From IMG/VR virus record IMGVR_UViG_3300020434_000055: a stretch of DNA of 64,000 nt; one strand, given 5' to 3'. The stretch is from a virus (Duplodnaviria; Caudoviricetes). The position numbers and the translations under genes were made by a program. Under the pieces are notes generated by a model. That model was not told the origin of the DNA. It made no database searches and saw nothing but the letters and a program-made list of their open reading frames with translations. Positions 4,327-54,819 of this stretch are shown here, piece by piece. Position 1 is the first letter of the stretch. The number at the start of each line of letters is the position of its first letter.

Positions 4327-4541
4327 TGGCACAACAAAATATAAATGTAGGTACAAGTGCAAACAAAGGTGATGGTGATCCATTAAGAACGGCGTTTACT
4401 AAAATAAACTCCAATTTTACTGACGCAGACACTAGAATAGTTGCATTAGAAGATGGAACAATTTCTTTAGCAACTTTAAAATCAGTAGTGGCGGCAAGTA
4501 CAGATTTTAATGATTTTAAAACAAGGGTAGCGGCATTATAG
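4326..4541 (+). CDS. Small virion protein with T4 gp9-like baseplate-connector N-terminal motif
   Basis: MAQQNINVGTSANKGDGDPLRTAFTKINSNF matches the gp9-type INIG..ANDG.GD.LR.AF.K.N.NF motif. Confidence 0.65.
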   Translation: MAQQNINVGTSANKGDGDPLRTAFTKINSNFTDADTRIVALEDGTISLATLKSVVAASTDFNDFKTRVAAL

Positions 4542-4549
4542 GATAGATT

Positions 4550-7500
4550 ATGGCAGATAGAATACCACTTATAGTAGATACATCGGACGGTAATAAAATA
4601 AAAGAATTACCAGTAGGTGATAATTTAGATTTATCTAATTCATCATTAGTTAATGTTACATCTGTAACAGCTACTAGTGTAAATGTAGGCGGAAATCTTT
4701 TTACTGGATCATATGCAGATCTTACAAACACTCCTACAATTCCAACAGATATTAGTGACTTAACAGATACTCAAAGTTTGCTTGGTGCAGGAGGTGGTGG
4801 TACAACTATTATATCAGGCGGTGGTGCTGGACGATGGATGTTAACTGCTGATGACAGTACTCAAGTTGATATATTATCAGACAATACAGTAAAAATTGCA
4901 GGAGCAGGTAATATTACTACTGCTACATCTGATGTATCAGGTACTACTGTTCTTACTGTAACTGGAACAGAATCAATAAGATGGGATTCCGGTTCAGGTT
5001 TATTTGAATTATTCACCGGTGTTGATTGGATCCCAATTATAGATACTACATATACATTTGAAGCAGGTGATGGTGATGACGCAACTGCTAAAAAAATTCG
5101 ATTAACAGGTACTGGTCAATCTACTCAAGACGTAACAGTTAGAGAAGGAACAGGCGTTACTATAACTAGAACAAGCAACGAATTAACATTTACAGCTACA
5201 GACACAGATACAACTTATTCTATATCGGCGGCTGAGGATGGTAATACAAATGCTGTACTAAGATTAACAGCTTCTAGTCTTTTAACAGATGACGTTATAT
5301 TTGCTCCAGGTTCAGGTATTGGTATTGCTAAAACAGATGATAACACATTAACTATTTCAAATACTGCGGCGGGAGCCAATGCTTTTGGAACTGTTACTGT
5401 TGGAGTGACTGATATTGTAGCAGATACTACTAATGATACTTTAACCATTGTAGGAGGAGCTAATATTGATGTAACAGGAGATGCAGGAACTGATACTATT
5501 ACAATTGCTAATACTCATGCTGATCAAAATCTTTTTAATCAAGTAGCAGGAGATACAGGAAGTAGAATAGCTCAAACTACTACAGAAACTTTAACAATAG
5601 CCGGTGGCACAAATGTTACAACAACTGTTGCAGGTTCTACTGTAACTATTGACGCAACAGGTGGCGGCGGTTCACAAAATGTATTTGGAGTAATTGCAGT
5701 TAGTGGTCAAAGTAATGTAGTAGCAGATTCTACAACAGATACTTTAACTCTTGTTGCTGGTACAGGAATAACACTTACAACTAATCCTACGAATGATAGT
5801 ATAACTGTTACAAATAGTTCTACGGGATCATCACAAAATTTATTCCAAACAGTTGCAGTTTCCGGACAAAATAATATTGTCGCAGATTCGGCTACTGACA
5901 CTTTAACTTTTGTAGGAGGTGCAGGAATAACACTTACAACTAATAGTACAACTGACGCTGTAACTATTGTTAATGCAGATCCAAATGTAGATCAAAATAT
6001 ATTCCAATCAATTGCGGTTAGTGGTCAAGGTAATGTTGTAGCAGATTCTACAACAGATACATTAACTTTCGTTGCTGGCAGTAATATGACAATTACTACT
6101 GATGTAGCAACTGATACTGTTACATTTGCTTCAAGTGGTGGAGGTGGATCTCAAAACGTATTTGATAAAATTGCTGTTAGTGGAGAAACAGATGTTGTAG
6201 CAGATTCTACAACAGATACATTAACTTTCGTTGCTGGTGCAGGTATAGGAATTACAACTACTCCTGGTACTGATAGCGTAACTATCTCTGCCTCAGGTGG
6301 AGCAGGATCACAAAGTTTATTTGAAACAATTGCAGTTAGTGGTCAAAGTGATGTTGTAGCAGATACAACAACTGACACATTAACTTTTGTTGCAGGTACT
6401 AATATGACAATTACCACTGATGCTGGAACTGATACTGTTACATTTGATTCAAGTGGTGGTGGAGGTTCACAAGATTTATTCAAAACAATTACAGTTGCAG
6501 GACAAGATGATGTTGTCGCAGATTCAACTGCTGATGTTTTAACTTTTGTTGCTGGTACAGACATATCAATAACAACTAATCAGGCGGCTGATAGTATTAC
6601 AATTAATTCTACTGGTAGTGGTGGTGAAGATAATGAATTTTCATTTAAAACAATTGAAGTTTCAGGACAAAGTGATGTTGTAGCAGATACAACAACTGAT
6701 ACATTAACATTTATTGAAGGTAGTAATATGACAATTACTACTAGTGGTGATTCAATTACATTTGCATCAACAGGCGGCGGTGGCTCACAAAATTTATGGG
6801 CAACTGTGGCAGGAGACACAGGTAGTACAACAGCTAACACTACTACAGATACTTTAGGAATAGTAGGTGGAACAGATATTAGTACTTCTATTGTAGCAGA
6901 TCTTTTAACAATTAATTACACAGGCGGAGCTAGTGCTCAAAATTTATTCAGTACAATTGCTATAGCAGGACAAAATTCAATAGTAGCTGATGCTCCTACT
7001 GACACTTTAACTTTAGCATCAGGGGCAGGTATAGTATTAGTAACTACTGCCGCTACAGATACTCTAACTATTGCAAATTCGGCACCAAATATAGTTCAAG
7101 ATGTATTCTCCGAAATTGCAGTTTCAGGACAATCAAGTCTTTTCGCAGATTCATCTGCAGATACGTTAAATGTGGCGGAAGGTGCAGGAATAGAAGTAAC
7201 AACAAGTGCTGGTACCGACACTTTAACAATTACAAATACTGCTCCTAATGTAGTTCAAAGTCTATGGTCACAAATAAGTTCAGATTCAGGTAGCACAACA
7301 GCTAATACTTCTACAGACGCTTTAGCAATACTAGGTGGAACAGATATTAGTACTTCTGTATCCGGTGACACCTTAACTATTGCTTACACAGGGTCTAGTG
7401 GTTCTAATCAAAATTTATGGTATACTATAGATTCAGATTCAGGTTCTACAACAGCAAATTCAACAACAGATACATTATCAATTGCCGGTGGTACAAGTAT

Positions 7501-8101
7501 TGGAACATCTGTATCAGGAGATACTTTAACTATTACAAATCAGGCTCCAAATGTAGATCAAAATTTATTCAATACAATTGCAGTCTCAGGACAAAGTGAT
7601 GTTATTGCAGATACAACAACTGATACATTAACTTTTGTTGCTGGTTCAAATATAACAATTACCACAGATGCCGGTACTGATAGTATTACTATTAATTCTA
7701 CTGGTGGAGGTGGATCAGGAACTCCAGGTGGTTCTACAACAGAAGTTCAATATAATGACGGTGGATCGTTTGCTGGTGATTCTGATTTAACATGGAACTC
7801 AGGCACTAATACATTATCAGCTAAAAATATTATTGCTGAAACTGTAGAAACAGAAACTATTGAAGCTCCTTCCAATTTAGTAGGAACTTATACAATTTCA
7901 TCACCAACAACTATCACATTAGATCCGGTTAGTGAAGTTATACTTGATGCTCCAATAAAATTACTTGGAAAAACAGCGGCTCAATTAGCAACCTTCACTG
8001 CAAGTGCTGGAACAATAGTTGCTGTATCAGATAATAGTTATAAACCAGCATACTACGATGGTTCAAATTGGAAATATGTTGCAACTGATGGAGGTGTATA
8101 A
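4550..8101 (+). CDS. Tail fibre/adhesin-like protein with about 15 tandem 50-53 aa repeats
   Basis: Repeated unit xQNLFxTIAVSGQSDVVADxTTDTLTFVAGxxITITTxxxTDxxTI; located in the tail cluster. Confidence 0.75.
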   Translation: MADRIPLIVDTSDGNKIKELPVGDNLDLSNSSLVNVTSVTATSVNVGGNLFTGSYADLTNTPTIPTDISDLTDTQSLLGAGGGGTTIISGGGAGRWMLTADDSTQVDILSDNTVKIAGAGNITTATSDVSGTTVLTVTGTESIRWDSGSGLFELFTGVDWIPIIDTTYTFEAGDGDDATAKKIRLTGTGQSTQDVTVREGTGVTITRTSNELTFTATDTDTTYSISAAEDGNTNAVLRLTASSLLTDDVIFAPGSGIGIAKTDDNTLTISNTAAGANAFGTVTVGVTDIVADTTNDTLTIVGGANIDVTGDAGTDTITIANTHADQNLFNQVAGDTGSRIAQTTTETLTIAGGTNVTTTVAGSTVTIDATGGGGSQNVFGVIAVSGQSNVVADSTTDTLTLVAGTGITLTTNPTNDSITVTNSSTGSSQNLFQTVAVSGQNNIVADSATDTLTFVGGAGITLTTNSTTDAVTIVNADPNVDQNIFQSIAVSGQGNVVADSTTDTLTFVAGSNMTITTDVATDTVTFASSGGGGSQNVFDKIAVSGETDVVADSTTDTLTFVAGAGIGITTTPGTDSVTISASGGAGSQSLFETIAVSGQSDVVADTTTDTLTFVAGTNMTITTDAGTDTVTFDSSGGGGSQDLFKTITVAGQDDVVADSTADVLTFVAGTDISITTNQAADSITINSTGSGGEDNEFSFKTIEVSGQSDVVADTTTDTLTFIEGSNMTITTSGDSITFASTGGGGSQNLWATVAGDTGSTTANTTTDTLGIVGGTDISTSIVADLLTINYTGGASAQNLFSTIAIAGQNSIVADAPTDTLTLASGAGIVLVTTAATDTLTIANSAPNIVQDVFSEIAVSGQSSLFADSSADTLNVAEGAGIEVTTSAGTDTLTITNTAPNVVQSLWSQISSDSGSTTANTSTDALAILGGTDISTSVSGDTLTIAYTGSSGSNQNLWYTIDSDSGSTTANSTTDTLSIAGGTSIGTSVSGDTLTITNQAPNVDQNLFNTIAVSGQSDVIADTTTDTLTFVAGSNITITTDAGTDSITINSTGGGGSGTPGGSTTEVQYNDGGSFAGDSDLTWNSGTNTLSAKNIIAETVETETIEAPSNLVGTYTISSPTTITLDPVSEVILDAPIKLLGKTAAQLATFTASAGTIVAVSDNSYKPAYYDGSNWKYVATDGGV
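5375..7715 (+). repeat. About 15 degenerate 150-160 bp tandem coding repeats
   Basis: Recurrent gttgtagcagattctacaacagatacattaact-like units; counted from the translation. Confidence 0.85.
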
Positions 8102-9874: not shown

Positions 9875-9882
9875 GATAAATA
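9875..9882 (+). promoter_or_regulatory. T4-like late promoter GATAAATA (representative; also 10593, 13746, 15113, 19757, 26682, 34405, 57884, 63343, with AATAAATA variants at 21489, 22677, 27948, 32124, 34151, 34935)
   Basis: Recurs in short intergenic gaps just upstream of structural and lysis genes; resembles the T4 late consensus TATAAATA. Confidence 0.7.
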
Positions 9883-16132: not shown

Positions 16133-17047
16133 ATGCAAGAGTTATGGGTAGAAAAGTATAGACCTAAAACTGTTGATCAATATGTTTTTAGAGATGATCA
16201 TCAGAGGAAACAGGTCCACCAATGGTTGAAAGAAAAGACAATTCCACATCTTTTATTTTCAGGCACAGCAGGTATAGGTAAAACTACACTTGCAAAAGTT
16301 CTTTTAAATGAATTACAAGTTAATGATCTTGATGTAATAGAAATAAATGCAAGTAGAACAAATTCTGTTGACGAAGTAAGAACAAGAATCATTAATTTTG
16401 TACAAATGATTCCGTTTGGTGAGTTTAAAGTAGTATTACTAGACGAAGCAGACTATCTAAGTCCAAATGCACAGGCGGCGTTACGTGGTGTAATGGAAGA
16501 ATACCACACAACATCAAGATTTATATTAACTTGCAACTATCCTAATAGAGTTATACCAGCACTTCACAGCAGATGTCAAGGTTTTCATATAGAAAGAATT
16601 GATCAAACAGAATTTACAGCAAGGGTGGCAGAAATTTTAATGCAAGAAGGTGTTACACCCGATCTTAACACATTAGACACTTATGTAAAAGCAACTTATC
16701 CTGATTTAAGAAAATGTATTAATACTGTACAAATGAATACGCAAGAAGGACAGTTAATTGAACCACAAAAAGCAGATACAGGTGATTTAGATTACAAATT
16801 ACAAATGGTTGAACTGTTTAAAGCAGGAAAAATAACAGAAGCAAGAAAATTAGTATGTAGTCAAGCAAGGCCAGACGAAATAGAAGACATATATAAGTGG
16901 TTATACGACAATATTAGTTTATTTGGGGACGAACAAAAACAAGAAAAAGCAATATTAATTATTAAACAAGGATTAGTGGATCATTCATTTGTTGCAGATC
17001 CCGAAATTAATTTATCTGCAACTATGATTAAGTTACAAAATCTCTAA
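16133..17047 (+). CDS. Clamp loader AAA+ subunit (gp44/RFC small-like)
   Basis: LWVEKYRP, Walker A GTAGIGKT, Walker B LLDEAD, SRC motif. Confidence 0.93.
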   Translation: MQELWVEKYRPKTVDQYVFRDDHQRKQVHQWLKEKTIPHLLFSGTAGIGKTTLAKVLLNELQVNDLDVIEINASRTNSVDEVRTRIINFVQMIPFGEFKVVLLDEADYLSPNAQAALRGVMEEYHTTSRFILTCNYPNRVIPALHSRCQGFHIERIDQTEFTARVAEILMQEGVTPDLNTLDTYVKATYPDLRKCINTVQMNTQEGQLIEPQKADTGDLDYKLQMVELFKAGKITEARKLVCSQARPDEIEDIYKWLYDNISLFGDEQKQEKAILIIKQGLVDHSFVADPEINLSATMIKLQNL

Positions 17048-23071: not shown

Positions 23072-23923
23072 ATGGCAGACTATTATGATATATTAGGGGT
23101 TAAAAAAGGCGCTTCCCAACAAGATTTAAAAAAAGCATATAAAAAACAAGCGATGAGATATCATCCAGACAAGGGTGGAGACTCTAATAAATTTCAAAAA
23201 ATAAACGAAGCATACGATACACTTAAAGACCCTCAAAAGAAAGCCATGTATGACCAATTTGGTGCTACTGGTAATCAAGGACCTTATTCAAGAACATATT
23301 CAACTGAAGAGTTTGAATTTCCTAATGACATAGGAGATATTTTTAATCAATTCTTTGGTGGATCAAGATCACCGTTTACTCAAAGAAGACAAAGACAAAG
23401 AAATAAAGACATAGCAATTCAAACTCAAATAGATTTAGAAGATGTAATGAATGGTAAATCATTAATTGCAACATATACACTAACAAATGGTAAGCAACAG
23501 AGTGTAAACATTGATTTACCTCCGGGAGTAGAAACAAATACCACGATGAAATTTACAGGACTAGGAGATAATTTCATTCCAAGTATTTCTAGAGGTGATT
23601 TAATGGTAAGAATTAAAGTACGATCTCATTCAAGATGGCATAGAGATGGTGCAAATTTACATTGCGTAGAAAAAGTAAGTGTGTTTGATTTATTATTAGG
23701 AACTAAAAAGGAAATAACAACTGTAGATGGTAAAAAATTATCTATTACCATCCCTAAAGGATGTCAACCAGGTACAGTATTAAGTATTAGTGAACAAGGA
23801 CTACCAAGATTGCATGGCAGAGGCAAAGGTAACATCTATATGACAGTTCAAGCCGATATACCTAACATATCTGATCCAGAAATGTTAAAGCTTCTTCAAA
23901 GGATAAAATATGGAACTAATTAA
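23072..23923 (+). CDS. dnaJ: DnaJ/CbpA-like co-chaperone (J domain plus C-terminal domain, no Zn finger)
   Basis: DYYDILGV, HPD motif, G/F region, GRGKGNIY C-terminal domain. Confidence 0.9.
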   Translation: MADYYDILGVKKGASQQDLKKAYKKQAMRYHPDKGGDSNKFQKINEAYDTLKDPQKKAMYDQFGATGNQGPYSRTYSTEEFEFPNDIGDIFNQFFGGSRSPFTQRRQRQRNKDIAIQTQIDLEDVMNGKSLIATYTLTNGKQQSVNIDLPPGVETNTTMKFTGLGDNFIPSISRGDLMVRIKVRSHSRWHRDGANLHCVEKVSVFDLLLGTKKEITTVDGKKLSITIPKGCQPGTVLSISEQGLPRLHGRGKGNIYMTVQADIPNISDPEMLKLLQRIKYGTN

Positions 23924-24428
23924 ACACCCAAATGAATGGTTAGAGAAAAAAATAAAACCTTTCGACTGGGAAAATTTAGATTCAGAAAAAATTGAACAAG
24001 AAATGGTCTCTATTATGGAGGATAATAAAGGTATAGGTCTGGCGGCAAATCAAGTTGGGTTAGATGCAAGAGTTGTAACAATATTGCCAAAAAATATAAA
24101 AGGAATTACTAAATCTTTTGCAATTATTGATCCTACAATAGAACAAATAAGTCTTAATAAAATTGAAGATGTTGAAGGATGTCTTAGTTTTCCAAAATTA
24201 TGGTTAAAAGTTAGAAGACCAGACAAGGTTACTGTAAAATTTCTTGACAGTAAACAAAAAGAGTGTATAATGGACTTTAGTGGTTATGATGCAAGATGTT
24301 TTCTTCACGAATATGATCATCTGGAAGGAATAACGTTCGTGAGTCCTTTACGAGTTAGCAAATTAAGATTAGATATGGCAATAAAAAGACAACAAAAAAT
24401 AATAAAAGAGGAACAACAAAATGGTTGA
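23910..24428 (+). CDS. def: Peptide deformylase
   Basis: GIGLAANQ, EGCLS, HEYDHLEG motifs. Confidence 0.95.
   Translation: MELIKHPNEWLEKKIKPFDWENLDSEKIEQEMVSIMEDNKGIGLAANQVGLDARVVTILPKNIKGITKSFAIIDPTIEQISLNKIEDVEGCLSFPKLWLKVRRPDKVTVKFLDSKQKECIMDFSGYDARCFLHEYDHLEGITFVSPLRVSKLRLDMAIKRQQKIIKEEQQNG
24244..24271 (+). promoter_or_regulatory. Sigma70-type promoter inside def, upstream of clpA
   Basis: TTGACA-16-TATAAT. Confidence 0.6.
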
Positions 24429-36254: not shown

Positions 36255-36551
36255 ATGATATATTACATTGACATAGACGGAACCATTTGTTATACTAAAG
36301 GTAGCGACTATGACAATAGTAAACCTGATTTAAAAAAAATAAAACAGGTTAATGAATTATATGATAAAGGTCATGAAATTCATTATTGGACTTCTAGAGG
36401 AGGAATGTCTGGAAAAGATTGGTATCTATTTACAATAGCTCAACTTAATGAATGGGGTTGTAAATTTACATCAATTAAATTAGGTAAACCTGTTTATGAT
36501 AAATGGGTTGACGATAAAGCAATAAACGAAAAGGATTTTTTTAATGGCTGA
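36255..36551 (+). CDS. Minimal HAD-family phosphatase
   Basis: YYIDIDGTIC, YWTSRG, GKP..D.WVDDK. Confidence 0.75.
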   Translation: MIYYIDIDGTICYTKGSDYDNSKPDLKKIKQVNELYDKGHEIHYWTSRGGMSGKDWYLFTIAQLNEWGCKFTSIKLGKPVYDKWVDDKAINEKDFFNG

Positions 36552-37038
36552 AGATTATGATAATGTAACGGAAGAATGTTTTACTTCCACTAAGAGTTTT
36601 TGGAACTTTCCTTGTGCTCATAGACAATATAGACACGAAGGCAATTGCCATTTAATTCACGGGTACAGTAGAAGTTTTCATTTTATATTTGGAATTAAAT
36701 CATTTACAAAAGAAGGCTTTGCAGTAGACTACGGTGACTTAGATGAACTAAAAGCACATTTAGATCATATGTACGACCATACATTAGTATTAGATGAAGA
36801 AGATCCATATATGGAAAATTTTAAAGTATTAGAAAAAGCAGGTGTATGTCGAATTAGAACTCATCCAATGGGACCAGGCATGGAAGGTACTGCACATTAT
36901 CTTTGTGATTGGACAGACACATGGTTACGTAAAAAATCACGAGGACGAGCTTGGGTTATTAGTGTAGAAGCTAGAGAAAATGATAAAAATAGTTCAATTT
37001 ATAAAAATCCAAATGCTGGATTTAAAGGCTGGTTATAA
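36544..37038 (+). CDS. queD: 6-carboxytetrahydropterin synthase
   Basis: CAHRQ...[23 protein letters not shown]-fold motifs. Confidence 0.88.
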
Positions 37039-37577
37039 TGAGTGACGAATTAAGCATTAGTCAATTAGATGCGAAAGGAAATAAATGTATGGTTCCTAAC
37101 GCAATGTTTAAAACAAGAGTAGCAGGTGAATGGAAAGATGTAACTACTGATGATTTATTTAAAAATAAAAAAGTAGTTGTATTTTCTTTACCAGGTGCTT
37201 TTACACCTACTTGTTCAAGTACACATTTTCCTGGATATGAATTAAAATACGATAGTATTAAAGAAACAGGTATTGATGAAGTTTATTGTATTTCAGTAAA
37301 TGATTCATTTGTAATGAATGCTTGGGCAAAAGATTTAAAAGCAGAAAAAATTAAAATGATTCCCGACGGTAATGGAAAATTTACTGAAGGAATGGGTATG
37401 TTAATCAACAAAGAACATTTAGGTTTTGGCAAACGAAGCTGGAGATACTCTGCGGTTGTAGACAACGGTGAAGTAATCAAAATGTTTATAGAACCAGGCA
37501 AGAATGATATAGGTGAAGACCAAGATCCATTTGAAACATCTGATGTTGATACCATGCTTAAATATCTTAGAACATAA
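37038..37577 (+). CDS. Peroxiredoxin (Prx5/type II)
   Basis: [26 protein letters not shown]. Confidence 0.92.
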
Positions 37578-37587
37578 CGGAGAAAAA

Positions 37588-38784
37588 ATGAAAATACTTT
37601 GTATACTATACGACGATCCAAAAGACGGAATGCCTACAAGCTATCCAGTTAAGGATCTACCAAAATTAGAAAAATATCCAGACGGAATGACACTACCAAC
37701 ACCTAAAGGCAGAGATTTTACGCCAGGTGATTTATTAGGTTGTGTATCTGGAGAGTTAGGATTAAGAAAATTTTTAGAAGATGCAGGACACACATTAGTT
37801 GTTACATCTGACAAAGACGGAGAAGGTTGTCAAGCAGACAAAGAATTAGTTGATGCTGACGTTGTTATATCACAACCGTTTTGGCCATATTACTTAACAA
37901 GAGAAAAAATGGAAACGGCACCAAATTTAAAAATGGCAATTACAGCAGGTATAGGATCTGACCACGTAGACTTACAAGCGGCAATGGATCGTAAAGTTGA
38001 TGTAGTTGAAGTAACGTATTGTAATTCAAGATCAGTTGCTGAACATATTGTAATGATGATTTTATCTTTAGTAAGAGATTATCACAACCAACACAGAATA
38101 GTAAACGAAGGTGGTTGGCATATTGCAGATGCAGTAAAAAGAAGTTATGATGTTGAAGGTATGCACGTAGGTACTATTGCGGCAGGACGTATTGGTTATG
38201 ATATGTTAAGAAAGATGGCACCATTCGATGTACATCTACATTATTTTGACAAACATAGATTATCTGAAGATAAGGAAAAAGAATTAAATTTAACTTATCA
38301 TGATTCAGTTGAATCTTTAATAGCAGTTTGTGATGTGATTAATATAAGTTGTCCATTACACCCTGAAACAGAACATATGTTTAATGATGATTTAATTAGT
38401 AAATGTAAACCTGGTGCGTATATTATTAATACTGCTAGAGGAAAAATATGTGATAAAGATGCTATTGCGAGAGCATTAGAATCAGGACAATTAAGTGGCT
38501 ATGCTGGAGACGTTTGGTTTCCACAACCAGCACCTAATGACCATGTTTGGAGAAGTATGCCAAACCATGGTATGACACCTCATACATCAGGAACATCACT
38601 ATCAGCACAAACAAGATATGCTGACGGTGTTAGAGAAATATTAGAATGTTTCTTTGATGGTACACCAATAAGAGATCCGTACTTAATTGTACAAAATGGA
38701 GAACTTGCTGGTATGGGTGCTCACTCTTATACAAAAGGAACAGCAACTGGTGGATCAGAAGAAGCGGCTAAATTTAAAAAATAA
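37588..38784 (+). CDS. fdh: NAD-dependent formate dehydrogenase
   Basis: CILYDDP, GELGLRKFLE, SQPFWP, TAGIGSDHVD, AAGRIG, YFDKHRL, NTARG, DVWFPQP, PHTSG: the full set of signatures of the Pseudomonas/Candida-type FDH. Confidence 0.95.
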   Translation: MKILCILYDDPKDGMPTSYPVKDLPKLEKYPDGMTLPTPKGRDFTPGDLLGCVSGELGLRKFLEDAGHTLVVTSDKDGEGCQADKELVDADVVISQPFWPYYLTREKMETAPNLKMAITAGIGSDHVDLQAAMDRKVDVVEVTYCNSRSVAEHIVMMILSLVRDYHNQHRIVNEGGWHIADAVKRSYDVEGMHVGTIAAGRIGYDMLRKMAPFDVHLHYFDKHRLSEDKEKELNLTYHDSVESLIAVCDVINISCPLHPETEHMFNDDLISKCKPGAYIINTARGKICDKDAIARALESGQLSGYAGDVWFPQPAPNDHVWRSMPNHGMTPHTSGTSLSAQTRYADGVREILECFFDGTPIRDPYLIVQNGELAGMGAHSYTKGTATGGSEEAAKFKK

Positions 38785-38786
38785 AA

Positions 38787-39644
38787 ATGCGATTTGCCGG
38801 TGCACAAATTCCAGTAACAAATAATCTTGAAAATAATACTAAAACTATTATTAATAGTATTAATTGGGCTGAAGAAAATAAATGTGATTATCTTGTAACA
38901 CCTGAATGTTCTTTATCAGGTTACGATGTAAATGGCGTCAATATAGATACTTCTATTAAAGCACTTTCTAAAGCATTAGACACTATAAGAAAATATGCTA
39001 GTGATAGACATATAGGTCTTATATTAGGAACATTATGGGTTGATGAAGATCCTACAACTCCTGCAGAGTCTTGGTGGAGCGTAGGAGATGTAAGAAATCA
39101 ACAACGTTATTATGATCCAGAAGGAAATTTCTTAGGAGTAGTTAATAAACGTTACATAGTTTCATATGACTATGGAGTTAAAAAAGGTGAAAATCCGGGA
39201 GTAATTAATCTGCCAATGAAAAATAATCCTACAAATCATATAAAAGTTACTGGTATGATATGTAACGACCTATGGGGTGGTTATTGGAAAGGTAGACCTA
39301 ATCTTGGACAAGTAGCACAAGAACAAAAAACAGATTTAATAATTCATTCTTCAAATGGTGCAAAAGATAAAGGCGAACCTATACGAAAGATTCTCGACAA
39401 ATTTCATACAGGATGTTTAGCATTTTTGTCATATAGATCTAATATACCAATCTTAACTGTAGATAATTCCATTCATCTAGATGGACAAGATTATGACGGA
39501 GAAACAGCAAGTCCTTCTGGAGTATTTCATCCTTTAGAACAAATAGTAGAAGCTCCTAGAAAAGGAACACAACATTTTTATTATGATTTCCATCCTAATA
39601 CTGACTACAACGTTTCTGTCGTGCCGGAGGAGTTAGCATCATGA
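38787..39644 (+). CDS. Carbon-nitrogen hydrolase (nitrilase superfamily)
   Basis: Triad motifs TPECSLSGY (Glu), NKRY (Lys), MICNDLW (Cys). Confidence 0.85.
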   Translation: MRFAGAQIPVTNNLENNTKTIINSINWAEENKCDYLVTPECSLSGYDVNGVNIDTSIKALSKALDTIRKYASDRHIGLILGTLWVDEDPTTPAESWWSVGDVRNQQRYYDPEGNFLGVVNKRYIVSYDYGVKKGENPGVINLPMKNNPTNHIKVTGMICNDLWGGYWKGRPNLGQVAQEQKTDLIIHSSNGAKDKGEPIRKILDKFHTGCLAFLSYRSNIPILTVDNSIHLDGQDYDGETASPSGVFHPLEQIVEAPRKGTQHFYYDFHPNTDYNVSVVPEELAS

Positions 39645-40693
39645 GACTAGATCAAACTATACATTTAGATTACGCAGATGTTTTGTTAAAACCAAAACGT
39701 TCTACGTTATCATCAAGAAAAGACGTAGATATGACTAGAACATTTACATTTAAAAATTCTAAAGAATCATATACTTGTTGTCCTATTGTAGCATCTAATA
39801 TGGATGGTGTTGGTACATTTAGTATGGCTAAAGTATTACAAGAACATAAAATGATGACTGTAATTACAAAAACTACTACACTAGAACAATGGAAAGAAGC
39901 AGTTGGACAAGGTATAAAATTAAAATACATATCTGTATGTACAGGAACAGGTAAACTTTGGGATAAAGACGCAGAAGATTATGCTACATTACAAAAAGTA
40001 TTAAAAAGTTTTCCAGACGTTAAGTTTATTACAATTGATGTTGCAAATGGCTATCATGAAAATTATGTTGACTTTCTTAAACAAGTTAGAGATGAATATC
40101 CAGATAAAACTATAATTGCAGGTAACGTGGTAACTGCAGAAATGACAGAACAATTAATCTTAAGTGGTGCTGATGTAGTAAAAATAGGAATTGGGCCTGG
40201 GTCAGTATGTACAACAAGAACAATGGCTGGTGTAGGTGTTCCACAATTTTCAGCAGTAGTAGAATGTGCAGATGCGGCAAATGGTGTTGGTGGACATATA
40301 ATGGCAGATGGTGGATGTAATGAACCTGGTGATGTAGCAAAGTCATTAGGAGGTGGAGCACATTTTGTTATGCTAGGAGGAATGTTAGCAGGACATAATG
40401 AATCAGAAGTTGAAGCAAAAGATGGAAAAAGAGAATTTTATGGCATGAGTTCAGATAGAGCAAGAGAAGTACACGGTAAAAGAAAAGATGGATATAGAGG
40501 TAATGAAGGTAAAAGAATATTTTTACCAGACAGAGGACCTGTTAAAGAAACAATAGAAGATATGTTAGGTGGTGTAAGATCATCTTGTACATATATTGGT
40601 GCAAGAAGATTAAAAGATATACCCAAATGTGCAAGTTTTGTTTGCGTAAATCACCAACTCAACAAAGTATATCAAAGTTATGAGAATCATTAA
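39641..40693 (+). CDS. guaC: GMP reductase
   Basis: DYADVLLKPKRS, DVANGY, GIGPGSVCTTR, ADGG, FYGMSS; no CBS domains. Confidence 0.92.
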   Translation: MRLDQTIHLDYADVLLKPKRSTLSSRKDVDMTRTFTFKNSKESYTCCPIVASNMDGVGTFSMAKVLQEHKMMTVITKTTTLEQWKEAVGQGIKLKYISVCTGTGKLWDKDAEDYATLQKVLKSFPDVKFITIDVANGYHENYVDFLKQVRDEYPDKTIIAGNVVTAEMTEQLILSGADVVKIGIGPGSVCTTRTMAGVGVPQFSAVVECADAANGVGGHIMADGGCNEPGDVAKSLGGGAHFVMLGGMLAGHNESEVEAKDGKREFYGMSSDRAREVHGKRKDGYRGNEGKRIFLPDRGPVKETIEDMLGGVRSSCTYIGARRLKDIPKCASFVCVNHQLNKVYQSYENH

Positions 40694-40701
40694 ATAATAA
40701 T

Positions 40702-41073
40702 ATGGCAGAAATAGATACATTAGTAGAACAATTAGGAAAATTAACAGTAATTGAAGCAGGAGAACTTTCTAAAAAATTAGAAAAGGCTTGGGGGCTAAAC
40801 TTGGATAGCTTAATGAATCAACCGGCTCAAGCACAAGCCCAAGTTGTTGAAGAAAAAGCAACAGCCTCAGTTATATTAACAGGATACCCAGCAGATAAAA
40901 AAATTAGTGTACTTAAAAAAGTACGTGAATATATTGAAGGTATGGGTTTATTAGAAGCCAAAAATTTTGTTGAGGATCTACCAAAAACTGTTAAAGAAGA
41001 TATTGAAAAAGAAGAAGCAGACAAAGTTAAAAAAGGTCTTGAAGAAGCTGGAGGAACAGTTCAATTAAAATGA
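40702..41073 (+). CDS. rplL: Ribosomal protein bL12 (L7/L12)
   Basis: N-terminal dimerisation domain, hinge, C-terminal KISVLKKVRE..GMGLLEAKNFVE.LPK.VKE...EAGGTVQLK. Confidence 0.92.
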   Translation: MAEIDTLVEQLGKLTVIEAGELSKKLEKAWGLNLDSLMNQPAQAQAQVVEEKATASVILTGYPADKKISVLKKVREYIEGMGLLEAKNFVEDLPKTVKEDIEKEEADKVKKGLEEAGGTVQLK

Positions 41074-41261
41074 TTTGTTTCAACTCTCCCGATGGTAAAT
41101 GGAGATTACAGATTAGAAATAGTGATGGAATGCCAGAAAAATGGTTTCAACCAAGATGGGAAGACTTAAAAAAGTTTCCACCTGCACCTTCCCACAAATA
41201 CACTACGAAAGAAATTATTGATGCAATGTCATCCTTTCATAAGGTTGACAAAACTCAATAA
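41070..41261 (+). CDS. Hypothetical protein
   Basis: ATGA overlap with rplL. Confidence 0.45.
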   Translation: MICFNSPDGKWRLQIRNSDGMPEKWFQPRWEDLKKFPPAPSHKYTTKEIIDAMSSFHKVDKTQ

Positions 41262-41273
41262 AATTGTTATAGT
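41245..41273 (+). promoter_or_regulatory. Sigma70-type promoter (polB)
   Basis: TTGACA-17-TATAGT with extended -10 TG. Confidence 0.75.
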
Positions 41274-41346: not shown

Positions 41347-44016
41347 ATGAGTTATATAAATGGCTTCTTCGATAGAAGTCAAGACGTTATAAGAGTAGTA
41401 GAACGCGATAACGGAAAAAGAATTTTCAGAGAATATCCAGTCAAATATACATTTTATTACGAAGATACTCGTGGCAAATTTAAAAGCACTGACGGTAAGT
41501 ATCTAAGTAGAATTGTATGTAAAAATTCAAAAGATTTTCATAAAGAACTTGCAATTAATAGAAATAAAAATTTATACGAATCCGATATTAATCCTATTTT
41601 CCAATGTTTAAGTGAAAATTATCTCAATCAAAATGCTCCAGATTTAAAAATTGCTTTCTTTGATATAGAAGCAGACTTTGATCCTGAAAAAGGTTTTGCT
41701 TTACCAAGTGATCCTTTTATGCCAGTAACTGCTATTTCAATTTACTTACAATGGCTAGACAGCCTTGTAACTTTTGCTTTACATCCTAAAAATATGACAA
41801 TAGCACGAGCAAAAGAATCTGTAAAAAAATTTAAGAATGTACATTTATATGATGACGAAACAAAAATGATGACAGATTTTTTAGACATCCTAGAAGATGT
41901 TGATGTATTAAGTGGTTGGAATAGTGAAGGGTATGATCTTCCATATTTAATTAATAGAATATCTAAGATAATGAGCAAAGATGATACTAGACGTTTTTGT
42001 TTATGGAAACAATTACCTAAGAAACGAGAATTTGATAGATTTGGAAGAACGCAAGAAACATATGATTTAATCGGTCGTGTACATTTAGATAGTTTAGAAC
42101 TTTATAGAAAATACACATATGAAGAACGACATTCTTATAGATTAGATGCAATTGGTGACCACGAACTAGGAGAAACAAAAACTGTATATGAAGGATCTTT
42201 AGATCAATTATATAACGATGACTTTGCAAAATTTATTGAGTACAATAGACAAGACGTTGTATTATTAGATAAACTAGATAAAAAATTCAAATTTATATCT
42301 TTAACTAATGAACTTGCACATCAAAATACTGTATTACTACAAACCACATTAGGAGCAGTTGCAGTAACAGAACAAGCTATTATTAACGAAGCTCATAAAA
42401 GAGGTGTACAAGTACCTAATAGAATTAAACGTGAATCTCACTCAACAGAATCGGCGGCAGGTGCTTATGTGGCATATCCTAAAAAAGGATTACACAATTG
42501 GATTGGTGCAATGGATATAAAATCTCTATATCCTTCAGTAATTAGAGCATTGAATATGGCTCCTGAATGTATTGTTGGACAATTAAAACCTGTAGACACA
42601 GATGCGTATATAGAAGAACAAATGACATTACAAAAAAAATCATTTGCGGCGGCTTGGGAAAATCATTTTGGAACATTAGAATATGAAGCAGTAATGAAAG
42701 AAAGAAAAGATGTTTTAATTACTGTAAACTGGGAAGATGGTAAAACAGAAACAATGAGTGGAGCCCAAATTTACAAAATGATATTTGATACTAATGCTCC
42801 TTTAATGTTAAGTGCTAATGGTACAATATTTACAAGTGACTTTGAAGGTGTAATACCTGGATTATTAAGAAAATGGTACGACGAAAGATCTCATCTTCAA
42901 GAAATGAGACAAAAGGCTGTAAATGCTAAAAACTTTGCAGAAATAGAATTTTGGGATAAAAGACAACTTGTTAAAAAAATTAATCTTAATTCATTATACG
43001 GTGCCATATTAAATCCTGGCTGTAGATTTTTTGATAAAAGAATAGGGCAATCAACGACATTATCTGGTAGACAAATTACTAAACATATGGCGGCTAAAAT
43101 TAATGAAGTAACAACTGGAACGTATGATTATTTAGGAAAAGCAGTAATATACGGAGATACAGATTCAGCATATTTTTCAGCATATCCTATATTAAAAAAA
43201 GAAATAGAAACAGGTGAAATACCTTGGACTAAAGAAAGTGTTATCAAATTATATGATAAAGTTGCTGAAGAAGTTAATACTAGTTTTAAAAAATTTATGT
43301 TAAAAGCATTCCATTGTCCTAAAAATAGAGCAGATGTTATTACAGCAAGTAGAGAATCAGTTGCAGAAACAGGACTTTTTATTACTAAAAAAAGATATGC
43401 AGTATTAAATTATGAAGTAGAAGGAAATAGACACGATATAGAAGATAAATCTGGTAAAGTAAAAGCAATGGGTTTAGATTTAAAAAGATCTGATACTCCT
43501 GCGTTTGTACAAGATTTTTTAAGTGAATTATTATTAATGGTATTAACTAAAAAAACAGAAAAAGAAGTTTTAGAAAAAATTACTAAATTTAGAATTGATT
43601 TTAAACAAAGACCTGGTTGGGAAAAAGGATCTCCAAAAAGAGTAAACAATCTTGTAGAATATGTAAGAAAAGAGCAAAGACAAGGCAAAGCTAATATGCC
43701 AGGACACGTTAGAGCAAGTATGAACTGGAATAATCTTAAAAGAATGAACGGTGACAAACATTCTATGGAAATAGTAGACGGTATGAAAGTAATTGTATGT
43801 AAACTTAAAAAGAATCCATTAGAATATACATCTGTTTCATATCCAACGGATCAACTACGTATTCCAAAATGGTTTAAAGAATTACCTTTTGATGGTGACG
43901 CAATGGAATCTACTTTAATTGATAATAAATTAGGAAACTTACTAGGAGAACTAAACTGGGATATTCAATCAACTGAACAACATAATACTTTCAGTTCAAT
44001 GTTTGAATTTGAATAA
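41347..44016 (+). CDS. polB: Family B DNA polymerase (gp43-like)
   Basis: Exo I FDIE, Exo II GWNSEGYD, region II DIKSLYPS, region III KINLNSLYG, region I YGDTDS. Confidence 0.97.
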   Translation: MSYINGFFDRSQDVIRVVERDNGKRIFREYPVKYTFYYEDTRGKFKSTDGKYLSRIVCKNSKDFHKELAINRNKNLYESDINPIFQCLSENYLNQNAPDLKIAFFDIEADFDPEKGFALPSDPFMPVTAISIYLQWLDSLVTFALHPKNMTIARAKESVKKFKNVHLYDDETKMMTDFLDILEDVDVLSGWNSEGYDLPYLINRISKIMSKDDTRRFCLWKQLPKKREFDRFGRTQETYDLIGRVHLDSLELYRKYTYEERHSYRLDAIGDHELGETKTVYEGSLDQLYNDDFAKFIEYNRQDVVLLDKLDKKFKFISLTNELAHQNTVLLQTTLGAVAVTEQAIINEAHKRGVQVPNRIKRESHSTESAAGAYVAYPKKGLHNWIGAMDIKSLYPSVIRALNMAPECIVGQLKPVDTDAYIEEQMTLQKKSFAAAWENHFGTLEYEAVMKERKDVLITVNWEDGKTETMSGAQIYKMIFDTNAPLMLSANGTIFTSDFEGVIPGLLRKWYDERSHLQEMRQKAVNAKNFAEIEFWDKRQLVKKINLNSLYGAILNPGCRFFDKRIGQSTTLSGRQITKHMAAKINEVTTGTYDYLGKAVIYGDTDSAYFSAYPILKKEIETGEIPWTKESVIKLYDKVAEEVNTSFKKFMLKAFHCPKNRADVITASRESVAETGLFITKKRYAVLNYEVEGNRHDIEDKSGKVKAMGLDLKRSDTPAFVQDFLSELLLMVLTKKTEKEVLEKITKFRIDFKQRPGWEKGSPKRVNNLVEYVRKEQRQGKANMPGHVRASMNWNNLKRMNGDKHSMEIVDGMKVIVCKLKKNPLEYTSVSYPTDQLRIPKWFKELPFDGDAMESTLIDNKLGNLLGELNWDIQSTEQHNTFSSMFEFE

Positions 44017-47010: not shown

Positions 47011-48000
47011 ATGAAAAGTTTAGTTATAGGTTTAAATTTTGGTCAATTATATACACGTGTTTTGAAAAAAATGGGACACGAAGTAATCACTGTGGATATT
47101 GATTCAAAACAAAATCCTATGTTTTTAGAATTAACTACAGCTCTAAAAACTCATCCTACATATGATACTATACATATTTGTACACCCAATAATACACATT
47201 ATATTGTTGCCCAAAAAGTTGCTAAACATGGTAAAATTATTTTTATTGAAAAACCAGGAGTTGAAACGCCACAACAATGGCAATTATTACAAACATTAAA
47301 TCCAGGCACTAAATTTATAATGACAAAAAATAATATGTTTAGAAGTAAATTATTTCTTGATAAAGTAAAAGAATCAGCATTACAAAGCGATACAATTGAA
47401 ATAAATTGGATTAATCAAGATAGAATACCTAATCCAGGTTCTTGGTTTACAAATAAAAAACTTGCATTTGGGGGCGTAACTCACGATTTATTTCCTCATT
47501 TATTAAGCATTTTTATTGAATTAAATCTAACCTCTTATCAAAATTTTAATATTAAAAATTTTCATAAAGAACAAAAATGGAATTTAAAAGATATTCATAT
47601 GAGATACGATGTGCATGGAAAAGAAATTAAAGAAGAAATAGGTCAAGGAGGCACATACGGTACAATTAATAAAGATGGTGTATATGATGTAGATGACCAA
47701 GCACAAATGGAATTATCTAATGATAATAAAACATTTAAAATAAAAGCAGATTGGAAACGTGGTCGCCCTGGACAAAAAGAAATAATATCTATAGATGATA
47801 TTGGTTTACATTTTTATAAAGACGATGTTGAACATTTAAACTTTATTGAGCTTGGACTTTGTCCGGAAAGTGCATATGAAAATATGATTAGACATTGTTT
47901 AGTACACCTTGAAGACAAAATGTTTTGGAACAAACAATTAGAATATGATTTATGGATACAAAAAGCAATTATAAATGATGACAAAGTTACTATACACTGA
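47011..48000 (+). CDS. Gfo/Idh/MocA-family NAD(P) oxidoreductase
   Basis: Rossmann VIGLNFG, ICTPNNTH, IEKP, GGVTHDLFPH. Confidence 0.85.
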   Translation: MKSLVIGLNFGQLYTRVLKKMGHEVITVDIDSKQNPMFLELTTALKTHPTYDTIHICTPNNTHYIVAQKVAKHGKIIFIEKPGVETPQQWQLLQTLNPGTKFIMTKNNMFRSKLFLDKVKESALQSDTIEINWINQDRIPNPGSWFTNKKLAFGGVTHDLFPHLLSIFIELNLTSYQNFNIKNFHKEQKWNLKDIHMRYDVHGKEIKEEIGQGGTYGTINKDGVYDVDDQAQMELSNDNKTFKIKADWKRGRPGQKEIISIDDIGLHFYKDDVEHLNFIELGLCPESAYENMIRHCLVHLEDKMFWNKQLEYDLWIQKAIINDDKVTIH

Positions 48001-48893: not shown

Positions 48894-49418
48894 ATGTTAG
48901 ATACAAGTAAAAGAAAAGAAACAACATTTTTTATAGGAACTGAAATAGAACAAACACCTATGAAAGGTACAAAAACTTTATTTGTAGTAGGTATTAAACC
49001 TGCAAACGAAATAGATAAAATTGCTAGTAAAAATAATATAAAAAATATTTACTTTGGAACAAGTCAAAGTTTTAACCCTAGCAATGAAACAGATTGGAAA
49101 GACTGGTATGTAATGATGACAATATTATTAGAAAAAAACTATTGGGTTACATTAGATTTTGATATCAGTTATTCCAATGACGTAATAGAGTCAGGATTAA
49201 TGGCCTTTGAAAGATTTATTCCAATGATAAGTGCCAAAATTCCAAATATAGAAAAACTGAATAAAAATGCAGTTTTAAAAATAGATGATACTACGTGGGG
49301 TCTAACAAATAAAGGAGTATGGTCCAAAGACCTGGCAACTTTAAAAGATACAATGCAATATACGGAATGGGCCGAATATAAAGACGACACCGTTTTGGAT
49401 ATTGACAATGAAAAGTAA
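48894..49418 (+). CDS. Hypothetical protein in the modification locus
   Basis: Start placed at ATG 48894; alpha/beta pattern (IYFGTSQSF, VTLDFD, LKIDD). Confidence 0.55.
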   Translation: MLDTSKRKETTFFIGTEIEQTPMKGTKTLFVVGIKPANEIDKIASKNNIKNIYFGTSQSFNPSNETDWKDWYVMMTILLEKNYWVTLDFDISYSNDVIESGLMAFERFIPMISAKIPNIEKLNKNAVLKIDDTTWGLTNKGVWSKDLATLKDTMQYTEWAEYKDDTVLDIDNEK

Positions 49419-49430
49419 AGCTGTTATAAT
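49402..49430 (+). promoter_or_regulatory. Consensus sigma70 promoter (dpdL-like/GT operon)
   Basis: TTGACA-17-TATAAT with extended -10 TG. Confidence 0.8.
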
Positions 49431-54141: not shown

Positions 54142-54819
54142 ATGAAAACATCTGAAAAAATTAAACAAAGATTAATAGACAAAAAAATACGTTTTTTTGC
54201 TAATGATAACATATCTAAACATATAGAAAAAGGCGAATTAAAAGATTTAGAAGTAGAAATAGAAGAAGCATTTGAAGATATATTAGATGCTTTAGTAATT
54301 GATACTGAAAACGATCATAATTCAAAAGAAACTGCTAAACGTGTAGCAAAAATGTACATCAATGAAATATTTTCAGGAAGATATGTTTCTCCTCCAAAGA
54401 TTACATCATTTCCAAATATGGGATATAAAAGTTTATATACAAGTGGTCCAATTAGTGTTAGATCAACCTGTGCTCACCATTTTCAAAACATTGTAGGAAA
54501 TTGTTGGGTAGGAGTATTACCTGAAGATGAAGTTATAGGTTTAAGTAAATTTAATAGAATTGTACACCATATTTCAGAAAGACCACAAATACAAGAAGAA
54601 CTGACTTTACAAATTTCTGAATCATTATCGAAATATGCTAAAACACCAAATGTAGCAGTAGTAGTCAAAGCAAAACATCATTGTTTAACTCAACGTGGTG
54701 TAAAAGAATCTGAAAATGATATGACCACCGCAGTTATGTTAGGAGCATTTGATACCCATGCTCCACTTAAAAAAGAATTTTATGATATATGTTTTAGTAT
54801 GAAAGGACATAGCATTTAG
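54142..54819 (+). CDS. folE: GTP cyclohydrolase I
   Basis: TAKRVAKMY, STCAHH, GLSKFNR, RPQIQE, HHCLTQRG. Confidence 0.95.
   Translation: MKTSEKIKQRLIDKKIRFFANDNISKHIEKGELKDLEVEIEEAFEDILDALVIDTENDHNSKETAKRVAKMYINEIFSGRYVSPPKITSFPNMGYKSLYTSGPISVRSTCAHHFQNIVGNCWVGVLPEDEVIGLSKFNRIVHHISERPQIQEELTLQISESLSKYAKTPNVAVVVKAKHHCLTQRGVKESENDMTTAVMLGAFDTHAPLKKEFYDICFSMKGHSI

Follow-up and report, generated by a model that had tools for sequence, protein, structure and literature searches.

The stretch of DNA analysed here, 64,000 nucleotides of the IMG/VR virus record IMGVR_UViG_3300020434_000055 (Duplodnaviria; Caudoviricetes; hereafter the window), carries on its + strand, at positions 37588..38784, an intact gene for a NAD+-dependent formate dehydrogenase (FDH) of 398 amino acids. 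The gene resides in a phage genome, is under purifying selection and has close relatives widely distributed among phages. It is a well-documented case of a host-derived auxiliary metabolic gene (AMG) in marine T4-like phages, one member of which had been mentioned before, and it involves no new mechanism. On the evidence of its sequence the protein is very probably an active, NAD+-dependent and metal-independent enzyme (EC 1.17.1.9) that serves the phage as an AMG.

The reading frame runs without interruption from an ATG start through 398 codons to the stop, with GGAG positioned 7–8 nt 5′ of the start. Against the NCBIfam model NF005750 ‘NAD-dependent formate dehydrogenase’, an equivalog model with a curated cut-off of 329 bits, the protein scores 652.3 bits, with residues 2–384 aligned to positions 3–385 of the 386 in the profile. 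The runner-up NCBIfam model, PGDH, reaches 153 bits, well under its own cut-off. Matches to PF00389 (2-Hacid_dh, 57.5 bits) and PF02826 (2-Hacid_dh_C, 167.8 bits) give the two-domain architecture of the D-isomer 2-hydroxyacid dehydrogenases. A search of the PDB returned a gap-free alignment of residues 2–398 with the FDH of Pseudomonas sp. 101 (2go1/2nac; E ~1e-195 to 6e-198), and the numbering of the phage protein is that of 2nac (PseFDH). The FDHs of Moraxella and other bacteria likewise match.

The residues involved in catalysis and substrate binding, Arg284, His332, Gln313, Asn146 and Ile122, are all present in the phage protein together with Pro97 and Phe98 of the channel. Arg284 is found in the motif NTARG, Gln313 in PQP and His332 in PHTSG. 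The NAD fold is recognisable in AAGRIG at residues 198–203, which conforms to (A/G)xGxxG, and Asp221, in the YFDKHRL motif of HYFDKHRL, would be expected to select NAD+ over NADP+. When the protein is aligned with nine relatives from phages and cells, P97, F98, I122, N146, A198–G203, D221, R284, Q313 and H332 are invariant. From the model score, the PDB alignment and these invariant residues, every statement about the sequence made in a preliminary description of the window, which had recognised an intact, full-length, metal-independent FDH with all of its signatures, is correct. The phage FDH shares its length, two-domain architecture and C-terminal tail with the enzymes of Pseudomonas sp. 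101 (2nac/2nad/2go1) and Moraxella (2gsd), and with the former it is identical at P97, F98, I122, N146, the AxGxxG loop, D221, R284, Q313 and H332. It differs from them in being phage-encoded, in its very low GC content at third codon positions (GC3, 0.165) and in a few conservative substitutions, and it is known here from its sequence.

The surroundings of the gene are those of a T4-like myovirus. Nearly all genes of the window lie on one strand, GC is 29–37%, and the products include long tail-fibre proteins and a baseplate-wedge connector (43–8101), a gp44 clamp loader (16133–17047), a gp47-like exonuclease and, as a phage hallmark just 3′ of the FDH block, a T4 gp43-type family B DNA polymerase (41347..44016, + strand; phrog_262, 652 bits). 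Among cultured phages this polymerase is nearest to those of Phosso, Atu_ph07 and RaK2, all of them jumbo phages (43–47%), and the CheckV completeness of related FDH-bearing IMG/VR contigs implies genomes of ~360 kb, from which the virus is probably a marine jumbo phage. Assignment to the pelagimyophages (HTVC008M-like; PMP groups A–E) was considered and rejected, since the polymerase is nearest to those of jumbo phages of 345–490 kb and not to that of HTVC008M, since the relatives are of ~360 kb, and since a 16-kb part of the window, compared with GenBank phages (INPHARED) by megablast, matched no cultured phage.

The nearest cellular FDHs, among GTDB species representatives, are those of SAR86 (90–92% amino acid identity; e.g. 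loci L081–L095) and Pelagibacteraceae (84–90%), followed by those of Opitutales, SUP05 and Rhodobiaceae (83–85%). Identities as high as these to SAR86 and SAR11 FDHs, and a low GC that is alike in host and phage, would be expected if the assembly were chimeric at this locus or if host DNA had been taken for that of a phage. The flanks on both sides of the gene are, however, common to independent assemblies: L001 and L073, IMG/VR contigs that stem from two further metagenomes, keep the order queD–Prx–FDH–guaC–rplL–DNA polymerase at 87–91% nucleotide identity. The junction of the peroxiredoxin (Prx) gene with FDH is bridged by contigs covering 37293–37656 and 37310–37641 without mismatches, from runs X2 and X6 of different studies, and contigs of the same two runs bridge the junctions from FDH through the CN-hydrolase gene to guaC (38753–39814) with 1–2 mismatches. 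A 4.3-kb stretch is present at ≥72% of sampled words in 14 DNA runs from at least seven studies. Comparison of 80 IMG/VR FDH loci with 80 cellular ones showed no flanking gene in common; the cellular loci of SAR86 and Pelagibacteraceae are conserved, mixed-strand and chromosomal, and unrelated to any phage context. Synonymous divergence (dS) between the FDH of the window and the nearest SAR86 clade is saturated (1.85), and the GC3 of 0.165 has ameliorated to fit the phage, against 0.28 in that clade. Given the independent syntenic assemblies, the bridging contigs, the match of GC3 to the phage and the saturated dS, mislabelled host DNA has a very small probability, and a chimeric assembly, or host DNA of recent capture, is excluded. 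The continuity of the assembly, which the preliminary description had wished to see checked along with read coverage, thus holds at both junctions in two independent runs.

Compared with its counterpart in L001 the FDH gene has a ratio of non-synonymous to synonymous substitution rates (dN/dS) of 0.027, the lowest among the 13 genes compared, the others ranging from 0.08 to 0.56. Among phage copies drawn from five genomic contexts the ratio is 0.03–0.10, and for pairs of cellular FDHs it is 0.012–0.07. The low ratios among phage copies indicate that FDH is kept functional in phages. Judged by its composition and divergence, the gene is a long-standing resident of marine T4-like phage genomes, maintained there by purifying selection.

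A pattern scan of IMG/VR found relatives of FDH on at least 106 contigs, 80 of which were retained for comparison of the loci. The FDHs of these 80 are 77–99% identical, all 80 loci show dense, co-directional packing of the phage type, and about 40 of the contigs carry homologues of the T4-like genes of the window. Clustering of the flanking open reading frames (ORFs), with recurrent neighbours annotated using Pfam, gave at least 12 immediate contexts for FDH in phages. The commonest of those described here (~20 loci) has the order neck protein–gp15–small-terminase-like–FDH–PAP2–TerL–tail sheath. In ~13 loci the order is DUF1353–two conserved ORFs–FDH–CHASE2-cyclase–CsgF–CsgG, in ~10 loci of the jumbo type it is UvdE–FDH–clamp loader, and in L070–L078 it is ThyX–NrdA/glutaredoxin–NifU–FDH–NrdB–SegE GIY-YIG endonuclease. 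The contigs of the curli context (CsgF/CsgG), whose FDHs are 89–93% identical to that of the window, have a CheckV-implied size of ~145 kb in the three that were checked and show weak DNA matches to Pelagibacter phage HTVC008M; another FDH-bearing contig, with an implied size of ~200 kb (G010), has a context that differs from the curli type. FDH is thus widespread among T4-like phages of the sea, which here fall into at least two size classes, and is inserted at many points between core genes.

Two of these contexts have further features. In the pelagimyophage-type loci L002–L015, L066 and L067 a CHASE2-sensor adenylate/guanylate cyclase gene, CsgF and CsgG lie directly 3′ of FDH. In L070–L078, L032 and L036 the gene lies between those for the large and small subunits of ribonucleotide reductase (RNR), where it also neighbours a NifU-like gene and a gene for a SegE-type GIY-YIG homing endonuclease. 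Such an endonuclease is a possible vehicle for the movement of FDH between phage genomes.

None of the tblastn matches of the FDH among GenBank phages (INPHARED) exceeds 46% identity, and the strongest are to unannotated ‘Staphylococcus phage’ contigs that resemble host DNA. A search of the literature for NAD-dependent FDH in viruses, phages, jumbo phages or the ocean gave no report beyond one (Zaragoza-Solas et al, 2020, mSystems, PMC7029224), where a single sentence states that the pelagimyophage PMP-MAVG-4, putatively from deep water, is alone in carrying a GMP reductase and a formate dehydrogenase. The preliminary description did not count FDH among commonly reported AMGs; this is accurate in that the gene is not widely documented, but with at least 106 IMG/VR contigs it is common in public viral sequences. 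PMP-MAVG-4 is, like the virus of the window, a marine T4-like myovirus with both FDH and GMP reductase, its FDH being compared here by description only. The same paper notes the ribosomal protein bL12 in group PMP-A, treats peptide deformylase (PDF) as core to pelagimyophages and describes their curli genes, so the pairing of FDH, GMP reductase and bL12 had been glimpsed before. The pelagimyophages it describes have genomes of 132–164 kb, whereas the phage of the window has a jumbo-like polymerase and relatives of ~360 kb. The authors cite the structure of the molybdenum enzyme FDH-H and propose generation of a proton gradient. The FDH of the window belongs to a soluble, NAD+-linked class that is itself no proton pump, and to that class their mechanistic comment would not apply.

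The classical AMGs of marine phages, such as psbA, talC, mazG and the PDF gene of cyanomyophages and pelagimyophages, are likewise host-derived genes for enzymes that lie between core T4-like genes under purifying selection, in positions that vary by lineage. FDH differs from them in targeting the terminal step of one-carbon (C1) oxidation and in the unusually large number of its insertion sites (at least 12), some of them beside a SegE-type homing endonuclease gene.

The relationship between the phage and cellular enzymes was investigated in an unrooted maximum-likelihood tree of 85 de-replicated FDH sequences, with which a quick tree of 156 rows agrees. The FDH of the window falls in a clade of 11 phage sequences, 9 SAR86 sequences and one other (ultrafast bootstrap 98, SH-aLRT 95), itself nested in a clade of 29 phage sequences, 9 SAR86 sequences and two others with support of 100/100. 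Further phage clades are found elsewhere in the tree, and one of these adjoins a SAR11 subclade in the quick tree. Monophyly of the phage FDHs is rejected (log-likelihood difference 201; approximately unbiased test, p=0.0004). The phage FDHs are polyphyletic, and the viral search and phylogeny proposed in the preliminary description place the copy in the window with a SAR86 lineage. The well-supported branches force at least four switches between phage and cell, the direction of which is unreadable from an unrooted tree.

The SAR86 FDHs nested in the phage clade are genuine chromosomal genes, at a locus that is conserved in 13 genomes and distinct from that of the main SAR86 clade. The single SUP05 and SAR11 FDHs nested among phage copies also stand in mixed-strand cellular contexts. 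A more ambitious reading would be that FDH forms a long-lived, phage-dominated lineage which hops between insertion sites and between unrelated T4-like phages (~145 and ~360 kb), partly by means of homing endonucleases, with repeated exchange between phages and the SAR86, SAR11 and SUP05 chromosomes. This would make phages a reservoir and vector of the terminal C1-oxidation step among streamlined heterotrophs of the ocean, and jumbo phages would in addition couple the enzyme to the formate that GTP cyclohydrolase I releases as deazaguanine is introduced throughout the genome. We offer this tentatively, and as a whole it seems rather unlikely.

The indications of the host of the phage in the window are in conflict. 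The phage bL12 is 45–46% identical to SAR11 rplL and 35–37% identical to SAR86 rplL, and the phage Prx is 37–39% identical to that of SAR11 with no match in SAR86. The rplL and Prx sequences thus point weakly towards SAR11 and the FDH tree towards SAR86. A search with the window polymerase in 266 genomes of the SAR86 order and 401 of Pelagibacterales found no contig of this phage, an empty result that is uninformative about the host. Two of the SAR86-order genomes (G201 and G250; L161–L163) did contain T4-like family B polymerases 30–31% identical to that of the window, and none was seen in the SAR11 sample. They may come from further myoviruses whose contigs entered single-cell or metagenome-assembled SAR86 assemblies. 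In several SAR11 genomes (L098, L099, L100, L103, L110 and L139) no more than 6 kb separates the chromosomal FDH from rplL, echoing the proximity of the two genes in the phage. Since the phage bL12 is only 42–46% identical to that of SAR11, FDH and rplL were not captured together recently.

Within the window FDH lies in a tight, co-directional block on the + strand whose members, as listed in the preliminary description, were borne out by Pfam and NCBIfam searches. The block begins with a PTPS/QueD-family protein (36544..37038; PF01242, 65.5 bits), which is 90% identical in amino acid sequence in L001. Ten nucleotides 5′ of FDH ends the Prx gene of the Redoxin/AhpC-TSA family (37038..37577; PF08534, 102.5 bits). 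On the 3′ side of FDH follow a divergent, virus-specific CN-hydrolase, called a nitrilase before (38787..39644; PF00795, 34.6 bits), the GMP reductase GuaC (39641..40693; NF003470, 469 bits) and a homologue of ribosomal protein bL12, rplL (40702..41073; TIGR00855, 107 bits). The two further enzymes noted in the preliminary description are also encoded on the + strand of the window: PDF at 23910..24428 (PF01327, 136 bits; motifs GIGLAANQ, EGCLS and HEYDH) and the GTP cyclohydrolase I FolE at 54142..54819 (PF01227, 153 bits).

The CN-hydrolase gene is absent from the sister phages L001 and L073, and a blastn comparison with these shows a clean single-gene insertion or deletion. A third, different sequence follows the stop codon of FDH in run X2 (loose end at 38782). 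Together these mark the site directly 3′ of FDH as a cassette hot-spot. A role of the CN-hydrolase as a formamidase feeding FDH was considered and dropped: its sole PDB match is to Nit-Fhit (E 0.004) and its Atlas neighbours are CN-hydrolase clusters that are 100% viral, which is evidence neither way. No true orthologue of GuaC was found in three SAR86 and two SAR11 genomes, where the only matches were partial ones to IMP dehydrogenase, and the phage GuaC may supply a step of purine interconversion that these streamlined bacteria lack.

From queD to rplL each gene follows the last at a distance of −4 to +10 nt, and a search of this block for terminator-like sites gave none. A σ70-like promoter with an extended −10 element (TTGACA-N17-TATACT; 36268..36296, + strand) matches the consensus at 11 of 12 positions and is the likely start of the queD-to-rplL unit. 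A second of the same class (41245..41273, + strand) is predicted ahead of the DNA polymerase gene and would set the 3′ limit of the FDH block, and a third (49402..49430) is predicted ahead of the deazaguanine cluster. The class, TTGACA-N15-TGTTATAnT at 36268, 41245 and 49402, recurs at the homologous places in L001 (8669, 12730 and 20865).

The presumed late promoters are distributed differently. ATAAATA occurs 16 times on the + strand of the window and not at all on the − strand, and is preceded by A or G in 15 of the 16 cases. The sites are at 9875, 10593, 13746, 15113, 19757, 21489, 22677, 26682, 27948, 32124, 34151, 34405, 34935, 57884, 63343 and 63352. The consensus octamer of the T4 late promoter, TATAAATA, is found on neither strand of the 64-kb window, where 15.5 ± 4.1 copies would be expected. 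The strand bias, the preceding purine and the absence of the T4 form suggest RATAAATA as the late-promoter consensus, and this motif does not occur between 34935 and 57884. It would seem likely that queD to rplL form one early or middle transcription unit, located at 36.3–41.2 kb in the window, beside the replication genes.

We infer the following role for the enzyme. Transcribed early or in the middle of infection from the σ70-type promoter with PTPS/QueD, Prx, GMP reductase and bL12, FDH would oxidise formate to CO2 in the infected cell and pass the hydride to NAD+. This would remove a dead-end C1 product and recover NADH for respiration and biosynthesis while the phage replicates. The formate would come from the tetrahydrofolate-linked C1 oxidation of the host, and also from reactions that infection intensifies, namely the action of PDF on each new protein and, in jumbo phages, that of GTP cyclohydrolase I in the synthesis of 7-deazaguanine. 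A formate-producing C1 pathway has been established in SAR11 according to a study cited in PMC12753301 (Sun et al, 2011).

Several points weigh against this account. The promoter calls are matches to a consensus, and the region holds 35 such sites where shuffled sequences lead one to expect 43, so that only the conserved class with 11 of 12 matches carries weight. Contigs from RNA libraries cover Prx–FDH, CN-hydrolase–guaC and guaC–rplL, and as these may be carried-over DNA they were not counted as proof of transcription. The formate metabolism of the host is an assumption. FDH also has no constant functional partner across its contexts, and guilt by association therefore gives no specific pathway.

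The preliminary description had suggested a formate-recycling loop with FolE and PDF. In a dedicated loop of this kind FDH would serve to consume the formate released by the phage's own FolE, during 7-deazaguanine modification of DNA, and by its PDF, preventing its build-up and returning NADH. Both of these enzymes are indeed encoded in the window, FolE is found in three FDH-bearing contigs of the jumbo type, and the scheme is chemically sensible for jumbo phages with deazaguanine-modified DNA: at one formate per modified guanine, a genome of ~350 kb with 32% GC would yield a large amount for a small cell. FDH and FolE are, however, 15 kb apart under different promoters and are connected by nothing more than their presence in one genome, PDF is common in marine phages that have no FDH (PMC7029224), and of the 12 or more unrelated contexts of FDH only the window type has a FolE, QueD or DpdA neighbour. 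Seven of ten large FDH-bearing contigs, among them the four of the 145–200 kb type, yielded no FolE, but as all ten are fragments (15–55% complete) this is weak evidence, and a co-occurrence in 3 of 10 cannot decide the matter. The presence of the two enzymes thus stands and the loop as it was put forward is unsupported; we consider it doubtful. The loop would be one of several sources of formate. It is more likely that the enzyme draws energy and reducing power from the C1 flux of the host in general, and the two could coexist.

A change of function would be a further alternative, with FDH re-purposed as a redox partner of Prx in protection against stress, acting on another substrate, or using NADP+ to feed GMP reductase or ThyX. 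In the window type Prx is directly 5′ and GuaC, a user of NADPH, 3′ of FDH, and in another context a NifU-like protein and a glutaredoxin-fused RNR flank it, suggesting that FDH is loosely linked with enzymes of redox and nucleotide metabolism. Prx and GuaC are, however, neighbours of FDH only in the window type and at one further locus (L029), and in its low dN/dS the phage FDH resembles the cellular enzymes. The formate-specific residues P97, F98, I122, N146, R284, Q313 and H332 are invariant, as is the NAD-selecting D221, which makes a re-purposed enzyme very unlikely.

Formate is the last intermediate in the oxidation of methyl groups and other C1 compounds that fuels abundant heterotrophs of the ocean. 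The presence of FDH in phages suggests that infection alters both the share of C1 carbon that is respired to CO2 and the reducing power of the infected cell. What had been a one-line remark in the literature, citing a class of enzyme other than that found here, is now a defined case of an FDH that is soluble, NAD+-linked and strongly constrained by purifying selection, spanning at least 106 viral contigs, many insertion sites and at least two size classes of phage, with a phylogeny intertwined with those of SAR86 and SAR11. It is worth recording for this breadth, for its strong conservation and for its entanglement with the evolution of FDH in these two groups. For viral ecologists it is a defined gene whose abundance can be measured in viromes and metatranscriptomes, and for biochemists a variant of FDH that is AT-rich by nature and highly conserved.

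Elsewhere in the window, a GFO/IDH/MocA-type oxidoreductase (47011–48000) is by far the most divergent gene relative to L001, with 57% amino acid identity and a dN/dS of 0.56, while its neighbours are 88–99% identical.

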